Positions 26,547 to 26,700 of a stretch of DNA of 45,041 nt are shown here, one piece after another (within the stretch, counting starts at the first letter, position 1; every line of letters starts with the position of its first letter). The translations under genes and the position numbers were made by a program. This stretch comes from a virus (lineage: Duplodnaviria > Heunggongvirae > Uroviricota > Caudoviricetes). Where the stretch lies: the IMG/VR virus record IMGVR_UViG_2802429245_000013; one strand, 5' to 3'. The notes below the pieces were generated by a model. It worked only from the letters and a program-made list of their open reading frames with translations, was not told the origin of the DNA and ran no database searches.

Positions 26547-26621
26547 TGGAGCGGGTAGCGGGAATCGAACCCGCATCATCAGCTTGGAAGGCTGAGGTAA
26601 TAGCCATTATACGATACCCGC
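26547..26621 (-). tRNA. tRNA-Gly (anticodon UCC), glyT-like, CCA encoded
   Basis: Folded by hand: 7-bp acceptor stem, anticodon stem TCAGC/GCTGA, loop CUUCCAA, T-arm GCGGG-TTCGATT-CCCGC, 3-prime CCA. Confidence 0.85.
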
Positions 26622-26624
26622 ATA

Positions 26625-26700
26625 TGGTGCCGACTACCGGAATCGAACTGGTGACCTACTGATTACAAGTCAGTTGCTCTACCTACTGAGCTAAGTCGGC
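26625..26700 (-). tRNA. tRNA-Thr (anticodon UGU), thrU-like, CCA encoded
   Basis: Folded by hand: 7-bp acceptor stem GCCGACT/AGTCGGC, D-arm GCTC...GAGC, anticodon loop CUUGUAA, T-loop TTCGATT (one T-stem mismatch), 3-prime ACCA. Confidence 0.85.

Follow-up and report, generated by a model that had tools for sequence, protein, structure and literature searches.

Genes for tRNAs downstream of the antiterminator gene Q have been known since phage 933W, whose record (AF125520) gives the order Q, pR', qut, a terminator, a putative tRNA promoter (pT), ileZ-argN-argO, a terminator and stx2. Here we describe a pair of tRNA genes, tRNA-Thr(UGU) and tRNA-Gly(UCC), lying between a Q-like gene upstream and two holin genes and an M15 endolysin gene downstream, all on one strand, in IMG/VR virus record IMGVR_UViG_2802429245_000013. 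This stretch of 45,041 bp, which was analyzed as a whole and is called the window below, holds most of a Rac-like lambdoid prophage. Each of the two is an intact copy of the one gene that the host has for that tRNA, thrU for tRNA-Thr(UGU) and glyT for tRNA-Gly(UCC). We hold with moderate confidence that they form a host-derived cassette that lambdoid phages keep in the late-regulatory region, here of a Rac-like prophage, where it would supply GGA/ACA-type decoding.

The pair itself is routine. It is a very common, already annotated feature of lambdoid prophages, and the initial annotation of this DNA was mistaken in implying that it was rare. Thr-Gly pairs are annotated in vB_EcoS-683R6, phi467 (Stx2f), vB_EcoM-606R7, vB_EcoS-689R5, PhiR47_1, JLK-2012 and SerU-LTIIb, as well as in RefSeq E. 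coli prophages. The annotated phages resemble the window in sequence (93-98% identity over the pair) and in carrying the pair just upstream of a holin gene, and the gap is again 3 nt in the four annotated by ARAGORN-style calls. They differ from the window in Q type, flanking genes and companion tRNAs (JLK-2012 has Asn, PhiR47_1 has Met and Lys); phi467 also carries its stx2f genes in the interval from Q to the tRNAs. A 2016 paper had mentioned the Thr-Gly pair as a landmark of Stx2f phages (PMC5189129). A literature search on thrU/glyT in prophages and on ileZ/argN/argO found nothing relevant beyond the papers cited here.

The window shares with 933W the slot itself and the encoded CCA and, with its signals as predicted, would share the layout of Q, promoter, terminator, tRNA promoter, closely spaced tRNAs, a further terminator and then toxin or lysis genes; the tRNAs of 933W, too, read codons that are rare in the host. 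Unlike 933W, the window lacks Ile and Arg tRNAs and a toxin gene; Thr(UGU) and Gly(UCC) are all it has, and they are separated by 3 nt instead of about 10 nt. The window tRNAs are identical or nearly identical copies of host genes. In the region upstream of the tRNAs we found no homology to the pT region of 933W except for the terminator, and a relationship to ileZ/argN/argO is seen only in relatives, not in the window itself.

Identity and host origin of the two genes

We searched the whole window for tRNAs with ARAGORN and with the Rfam RF00005 covariance model. ARAGORN called exactly two, Gly(tcc) and Thr(tgt), and both were recovered by the covariance model (E = 2e-14 for tRNA-Thr and 3.7e-12 for tRNA-Gly; bit scores are given in Table 1, the gathering score being 29), whose alignments show a cloverleaf for each. 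Both genes end in an encoded CCA, and both lie on the minus strand, Thr before Gly in transcription, in the same direction as the neighboring genes. Thus the two programs and the sequence itself agree with the initial annotation, which had placed two complete CCA-encoding tRNA genes here 3 nt apart, and the coordinates, anticodons and spacing that it gave were correct; it named no strand.

Direct comparison with E. coli K-12 bore out its further description of the genes as thrU-like and glyT-like: the Thr gene matches thrU at 76/76 positions and the Gly gene matches glyT at 73/75. The two differences in Gly, at linear positions 6 (C to U) and 66 (G to A), pair with each other, so that C6:G67 of the acceptor stem has become U6:A67, a compensatory change that is still Watson-Crick. 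Threonyl-tRNA synthetase (ThrRS) recognizes G1:C72, C2:G71, G35 and U36, and since the window gene is identical to thrU, every one of these elements is present along with the UGU anticodon. The identity elements for glycyl-tRNA synthetase are G1:C72, C2:G71, G3:C70, U73, C35 and C36; all of them are visible in the window tRNA-Gly, whose anticodon is UCC.

In the host, the two genes belong to the tufB cluster, thrU-tyrU-glyT-thrT (K-12 b3976-b3979), which the window resembles in sequence and in having Thr(UGU) before Gly(UCC). The resemblance is confined to the mature tRNAs: neither the two flanks nor the spacer show any relation to the tufB operon, and the window has no tyrU, thrT, tufB or host spacer. 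The 3-nt gap compares with 209 nt, tyrU included, between thrU and glyT in the host, and U6:A67 is specific to the phage. Host loci of Salmonella and E. coli match the window pair equally (98.7%), which suggests that the thrU and glyT tRNAs are the same in both genera and that the comparison with K-12 is probably valid for the real host.

A host origin of the cassette is well supported by comparison, because near-identity and the gene order of the tufB operon are joined by one relative with a tyrU fragment. In this relative, represented by two contigs of a single genome (L171 3164-3282 and L170 2162-2263), a phage array made up of ileZ, an argN-like gene and Thr runs into precisely the host spacer TCAAGTCC and then into 35 nt from the start of tyrU. 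The tyrU fragment breaks off within the anticodon loop, and there is no Gly gene behind it. Its surroundings are clearly those of a phage: a methylase gene lies upstream and a YjhS-like gene downstream. Host spacer and tyrU sequence behind a phage Thr gene show directly that phage Thr and host thrU-tyrU exchange sequence.

The initial annotation had suggested capture from the host operon followed by deletion. Its first part stands; the specific route, in which the whole operon was captured and tyrU then lost, is unproven: there was no Thr-Tyr-Gly array and no longer Thr-Gly spacer among the phage contigs listed, and the host spacer ahead of Gly was found in none of the viral contigs searched; the only partial structure of this kind is the Thr gene with host spacer and tyrU fragment in the single genome above. 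The TAT of the spacer can be read as the first base after thrU (T) joined to the last two bases before glyT (AT) and is compatible with a clean deletion; on a rough estimate, chance alone would give a three-base match to such a join in about 6% of cases.

The U6:A67 allele points to a history within phages. Among the Thr-Gly loci compared below, the host-type C6:G67 prevails in four-gene arrays and U6:A67 in two-gene cassettes, and the U.G intermediate of the change occurs in four contigs. A scan of one genome per species found no enterobacterial species with A67 at the chromosomal glyT-thrT locus. Because A67 is absent from these chromosomal contexts, we conclude that the allele arose, and is maintained, within phages. 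It also provides a natural tag that separates phage-derived from host-derived tRNA-Gly(UCC), through which cassette expression could be followed directly by tRNA-seq. The native glyT of another enterobacterium was considered as a source of U6:A67 and rejected, as A67 in a glyT-thrT context was seen only in marine Oceanospirillales, where the tRNA has a different D-arm.

Distribution and modularity of the cassette

To count the unit in IMG/VR we used a pattern of the Thr 3' end, a gap of 0-30 nt and the Gly 5' end, which gives a lower bound; at least 120 contigs carry it. These contigs, together with the window and three related loci, gave 124 cassettes for comparison. The spacer is TAT in 120 of them, TAAT in three and TGT in one, and the prevalence of TAT argues for a single origin of the cassettes that share it. 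When the 154-nt cassette was searched against 5,421 complete E. coli genomes, it matched in 6,579 places, about 1,158 beyond one host locus for each genome, and in 312 records the best match was at least 99% identical to the window allele, compared with 98.7% for the host locus. Mosaic recombination has carried the cassette into many lambdoid phages.

Array composition was determined by running ARAGORN on 127 oriented related loci. Thr-Gly stands alone in 57 of these, 29 of which have the haplotype of the window (Thr identical to thrU, Gly with U6:A67). About 60 of the 127 carry a four-gene array in which Met(cat), a variable gene, Thr and Gly are spaced 1, 2 and 3 nt apart. Here Met(cat) matches ileZ of 933W at 76/76 positions, and the second gene has an argN-like body with a variable anticodon loop. 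Since ileZ-identical and argN-like tRNAs abut Thr-Gly in about 60 loci, the pair is one module of the lambdoid tRNA slot, the 3' half of a larger array of ileZ, argN-like, Thr and Gly. The initial annotation had likened the location to the ileZ-argN-argO slot, and both the 933W record and these fused arrays confirm this.

The cassette is also under purifying selection. In a set of 93 distinct loci, identity is about 98% over the unconstrained parts of the tRNAs; in 65-80% of the set the flanks show no relation to one another, and homologous flanks reach only 91-92%.

The argN-like tRNA upstream of Thr is variable in its anticodon loop. Its commonest form is called Lys(ttt) (for example, L093 and L095-L097 in our set of loci); the loop of this form, CCUUUAA, has C at position 33, where U is near-universal. 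Other forms are called Arg(tct) (L099, L010, L017), Leu(taa) (L103, L074) and Phe(aaa) (L118, L008), and in L098 and L053 the anticodon was left undetermined. Either anticodon switching or gene decay could produce such a series. Changed anticodons are also seen in tRNAs with a thrU body directly before Gly: one is UCU, called Arg, in L126 (SerU-LTIIb 4228-4300), and another is UUU, called Lys, in two IMG/VR contigs (L117 and L073).

Proposed codon supply and competing explanations

The codon usage of 24 late open reading frames (ORFs; 6,423 codons) was compared with average and highly expressed K-12 genes, as the initial annotation had proposed, and a Fisher test was applied to the late versus average contrast. 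GGA is strongly over-used in the late genes, at 15.3 per thousand compared with 6.0 in average and 1.2 in highly expressed K-12 genes (odds ratio 2.7, p = 1e-6), and GGA plus GGG make up 43% of late Gly codons compared with 21% and 3% (odds ratio 2.95, p = 1.8e-13). ACA is weakly over-used (11.1 per thousand compared with 6.2 and 3.1; odds ratio 1.65, p = 0.03); ACA plus ACG account for 57% of late Thr codons, compared with 38% and 11% (odds ratio 2.12, p = 4.5e-06). Expressed as the excess of late genes over the sampled host genes, this amounts to 2.5x for GGA and 1.8x for ACA. Of the A-ending codons tabulated that are served by a single-copy host tRNA, GGA, UCA and ACA have the highest absolute frequencies in late genes. 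This bias fits codon supply without proving it.

We propose that the cassette is expressed as follows. On induction, RNA polymerase modified by Q at the Q-adjacent promoter would read through the terminator at 26975-26944, and Thr-Gly would become part of the late transcript, immediately before the lysis and morphogenesis genes. The tRNAs may also have a promoter of their own in a conserved promoter-like element 60-100 nt upstream of Thr, by analogy with the role suggested for pT in 933W. Both tRNAs would then be freed by RNase P and 3' exonucleases, addition of CCA being unnecessary, and the added tRNAs would raise the capacity to decode GGA/GGG and ACA/ACG, each served in the host by a single-copy tRNA of low abundance.

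Several points weigh against this account. Both promoters are at the level of consensus matches, and our scan was no richer in promoter-like sites than shuffled sequence. The ACA enrichment is modest. AGA, AGG and AUA exceed ACA and GGA in relative enrichment, yet the phage carries no tRNA for them, and therefore codon demand alone does not predict a Thr plus Gly pair. The codon reference was a 49-kb sample of K-12, and the real host is probably a non-coli Escherichia. Finally, the codon bias of the phage stems largely from its lower GC, and correlation is no proof that these tRNAs limit translation.

A different use for the pair is suggested by nuclease-resistant tRNAs with which virulent phages counter host defense, such as tRNA-Lys, tRNA-Thr and tRNA-Asn of T5 (against PARIS) and tRNA-Tyr of SP15 (against Retron-Eco7). 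The window, like these phages, carries a phage tRNA, and the Thr(UGU) isoacceptor is cleaved by a defense nuclease, so that the phage tRNA-Thr(UGU), and perhaps tRNA-Gly, could replenish or out-compete host tRNA cut by the anticodon nucleases of abortive infection, such as PARIS AriB or the prophage-encoded HepS, and allow late translation to continue. Over-expressed phage tRNA-Lys, tRNA-Thr and tRNA-Asn neutralize PARIS; the T5 versions have this effect, and the U16C substitution impairs AriB cleavage of tRNA-Lys (PMC12409363). Lambda is also restricted by PARIS (PMC9122126), and HepS of prophage Gifsy-1, on sensing siphovirus tail tips, cleaves Thr tRNAs including Thr(UGU) (PMC13043305). Among related loci, some arrays have tRNAs called Lys(UUU) or Asn beside Thr, and about 35 of the 124 related Thr alleles carry the U16C substitution (D-loop AGCAGGCA), usually with U20C.

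We nonetheless regard this explanation as unlikely for the window. Its tRNA-Thr is identical to host thrU, including U16 and the cleavage site U36AAUC|A41 with U39, C40 and A41 retained; unlike the T5 and SP15 tRNAs it has no resistance substitutions and is the same as the cleavable host tRNA, and it belongs to a temperate phage with no tRNA-Lys partner. Being identical to the host tRNA, it could act in counter-defense only through dosage, which makes this a minority reading, and the PARIS study found that genome-encoded Thr copies alone were often insufficient (PMC12409363). For tRNA-Gly(UCC), our literature search found no defense nuclease that targets it, and with Retron-Eco7 this tRNA served as a control that is not cleaved. 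No known nuclease determinant includes the U6:A67 change, and the U16C alleles do not co-occur with Lys-bearing arrays, contrary to what an anti-PARIS module would predict. A broader version, an arms race in which temperate phages carry extra or variant tRNA-Thr(UGU) against PARIS and HepS, with U16C alleles as resistant forms, the argN-like gene, with anticodons that shift (one is called Lys UUU), as a second component that evolves and the window acting by dosage only, seems to us rather unlikely. Still, since tRNA-Thr(UGU) is a target of PARIS and HepS, so common a cassette offers a cheap test case for tRNA-based counter-defense in temperate phages.

The pair might instead be a moron that benefits the lysogen, expressed constitutively from its own promoter and helping the host to translate AT-rich acquired genes, with help to the phage's late genes being secondary. 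The layout is moron-like, with terminators on both sides and a conserved AT-rich stretch and promoter-like block ahead of the genes; a putative tRNA promoter, pT, is annotated in 933W; the cassette adjoins toxin genes (stx2f, LT-IIb) in some phages; and ACA (17.2 per thousand) and GGA (13.5 per thousand) are abundant in the prophage's early and accessory genes as well. Against it, the pair's own promoter is putative, given a scan that did no better than shuffled sequence, and the conserved place directly in the Q-dependent late transcript points to late expression. We judge it fairly unlikely; it is compatible with codon supply and does not exclude it.

Could the pair be a neutral passenger, repeatedly converted by the host genes and serving phages as a short homology linker for mosaic recombination? 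Homology between phages often starts or stops at the borders of the tRNA pair, and the Thr gene followed by host spacer and a tyrU fragment in L171/L170 demonstrates exchange with the host locus. However, U6:A67, which was absent from the scanned enterobacterial glyT-thrT loci, is the commonest form in two-tRNA cassettes, with pairing kept through U.G; this distribution and the kept pairing indicate selection inside phages and not conversion from the host. Disrupting changes were also found in very few of the copies examined, and we consider a neutral passenger very unlikely.

The last alternative, an assembly chimera or misplaced piece of the tufB-operon tRNA cluster, was raised by the initial annotation in case the sequence proved identical to a host locus and has in its favor that Thr is 100% identical to thrU, but it can be dismissed: only the mature tRNAs match, the window has no tyrU, thrT or tufB and neither the spacers nor the flanks of the host locus, and the Thr-Gly junction is found again in at least 120 viral contigs, hundreds of complete genomes and sequenced phage particles.

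Predicted transcription signals and prophage setting

The features of the region are collected in Table 1.

Table 1. Genes and predicted transcription signals in the late-regulatory and lysis region of the window
Feature	Position	Strand	Basis
Q-like late antiterminator gene	27067..27729 (maximal ORF)	-	Pfam DUF1133 5e-101; weak Phage_antitermQ 4.7e-06
Candidate late promoter (pR'-like), TTGCAT-17 nt-TTCAAT	27030..27058	-	Read from sequence, just after Q stop; inferred
Predicted strong intrinsic terminator (tR'-like), 13-bp stem and T-run	26944..26975	-	Terminator scan
Candidate tRNA promoter (pT-like), overlapping TTGACG-17-TGGAAT and TTGCGA-16-TATCAT	26765..26808	-	Promoter scan; inferred
tRNA-Thr(UGU), encoded CCA	26625..26700	-	ARAGORN; Rfam 73.8 bits; 76/76 vs K-12 thrU
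Spacer, TAT on coding strand	26622..26624	-	3 nt; read from sequence
tRNA-Gly(UCC), encoded CCA	26547..26621	-	ARAGORN; Rfam 65.6 bits; 73/75 vs K-12 glyT
Weak terminator-like hairpin	26427..26448	-	Terminator scan; ~100 nt downstream of tRNA-Gly
Predicted strong intrinsic terminator, AACCGCCATATCTGGCGGTT then T8	26163..26182	-	Terminator scan; between tRNAs and holin genes
Holin	25396-25860	-	Pfam; lysis cassette 24751..25860
Second holin	25131-25460	-	Pfam; lysis cassette 24751..25860
M15 endolysin	24751-25134	-	Pfam Peptidase_M15_4

The candidate pR'-like promoter follows the stop codon of Q (27067-27069) and occupies the position of the annotated pR' in 933W. Its -10 element and about 80 nt after it are conserved in 18 distinct relatives despite differing Q 3' ends; the consensus promoter scan did not pick it up. 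The tR'-like terminator is also conserved in relatives. It weakly matches (82% identity over 28 nt, E = 0.033) the terminator before the tRNAs of 933W, which the record of that phage (AF125520) labels a [quoted passage not shown] The pT-like block, which lies where 933W has its annotated pT, comes after about 150 nt of AT-rich sequence and is invariant in 18 relatives. One of its two elements scores 9/12; promoter-like sites in the region are no more numerous than in shuffled sequence.

Between tRNA-Gly and the holin gene lies a gap of 686 nt, in which we found no convincing ORF and, with a permissive Rfam search, nothing beyond the tRNAs. About 250 nt of non-coding sequence directly downstream of tRNA-Gly (26300-26546) is common to roughly half of the cassette loci, more than is the case for the upstream flank; the weak terminator-like hairpin lies in this segment, which has neither a convincing ORF nor an Rfam match.

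Homologues of the Q-like gene are labeled "DUF1133 family protein" or "antitermination protein Q," and because the annotated ones are 178-180 aa long, its true start is probably near 27609. The lysis genes belong to the families Phage_holin_8, Phage_holin_3_7 and Peptidase_M15_4, with homologues annotated alike, and the order Q, tRNAs, holins, endolysin is also annotated in homologous E. coli prophages and phages. At the right end of the prophage are the integrase (43231-44307), excisionase, RalR/RalA, RecT and RecE; leftward follow a cI-like repressor, replication genes, hok/sok, DUF1367, YbcO and then the Q-like DUF1133 gene. Left of the endolysin lie a ParB-like gene, a glycosyltransferase-like gene, terminase, portal and tail genes.

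The prophage is integrated beside the ryeA/sdsR locus. For its host flank (44380-45041, with RyeA/SdsR and yebY), the best match among 5,426 complete E. coli genomes reaches only 91.6% identity, and for this reason the host is probably a non-coli Escherichia. Two toxin-antitoxin RNA loci are present in the prophage, hok/sok (sok 120 bits; 29009-29314) and the RalR antitoxin RNA RalA (218 bits; 42695-42873). Between the lysis cassette and the small terminase (22501-24214, minus strand) are a gene with a ParB N-terminal domain and a gene resembling TET-associated glycosyltransferases ("GREB1-related"); no TET/JBP dioxygenase is evident within the window, and the two genes may form a DNA-modification module. 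An Rfam match to sRNA-Xcc1 (3669-3753, plus strand; 72.4 bits against a gathering score of 53) lies directly upstream of an AntA-type antirepressor ORF (3789-4358).

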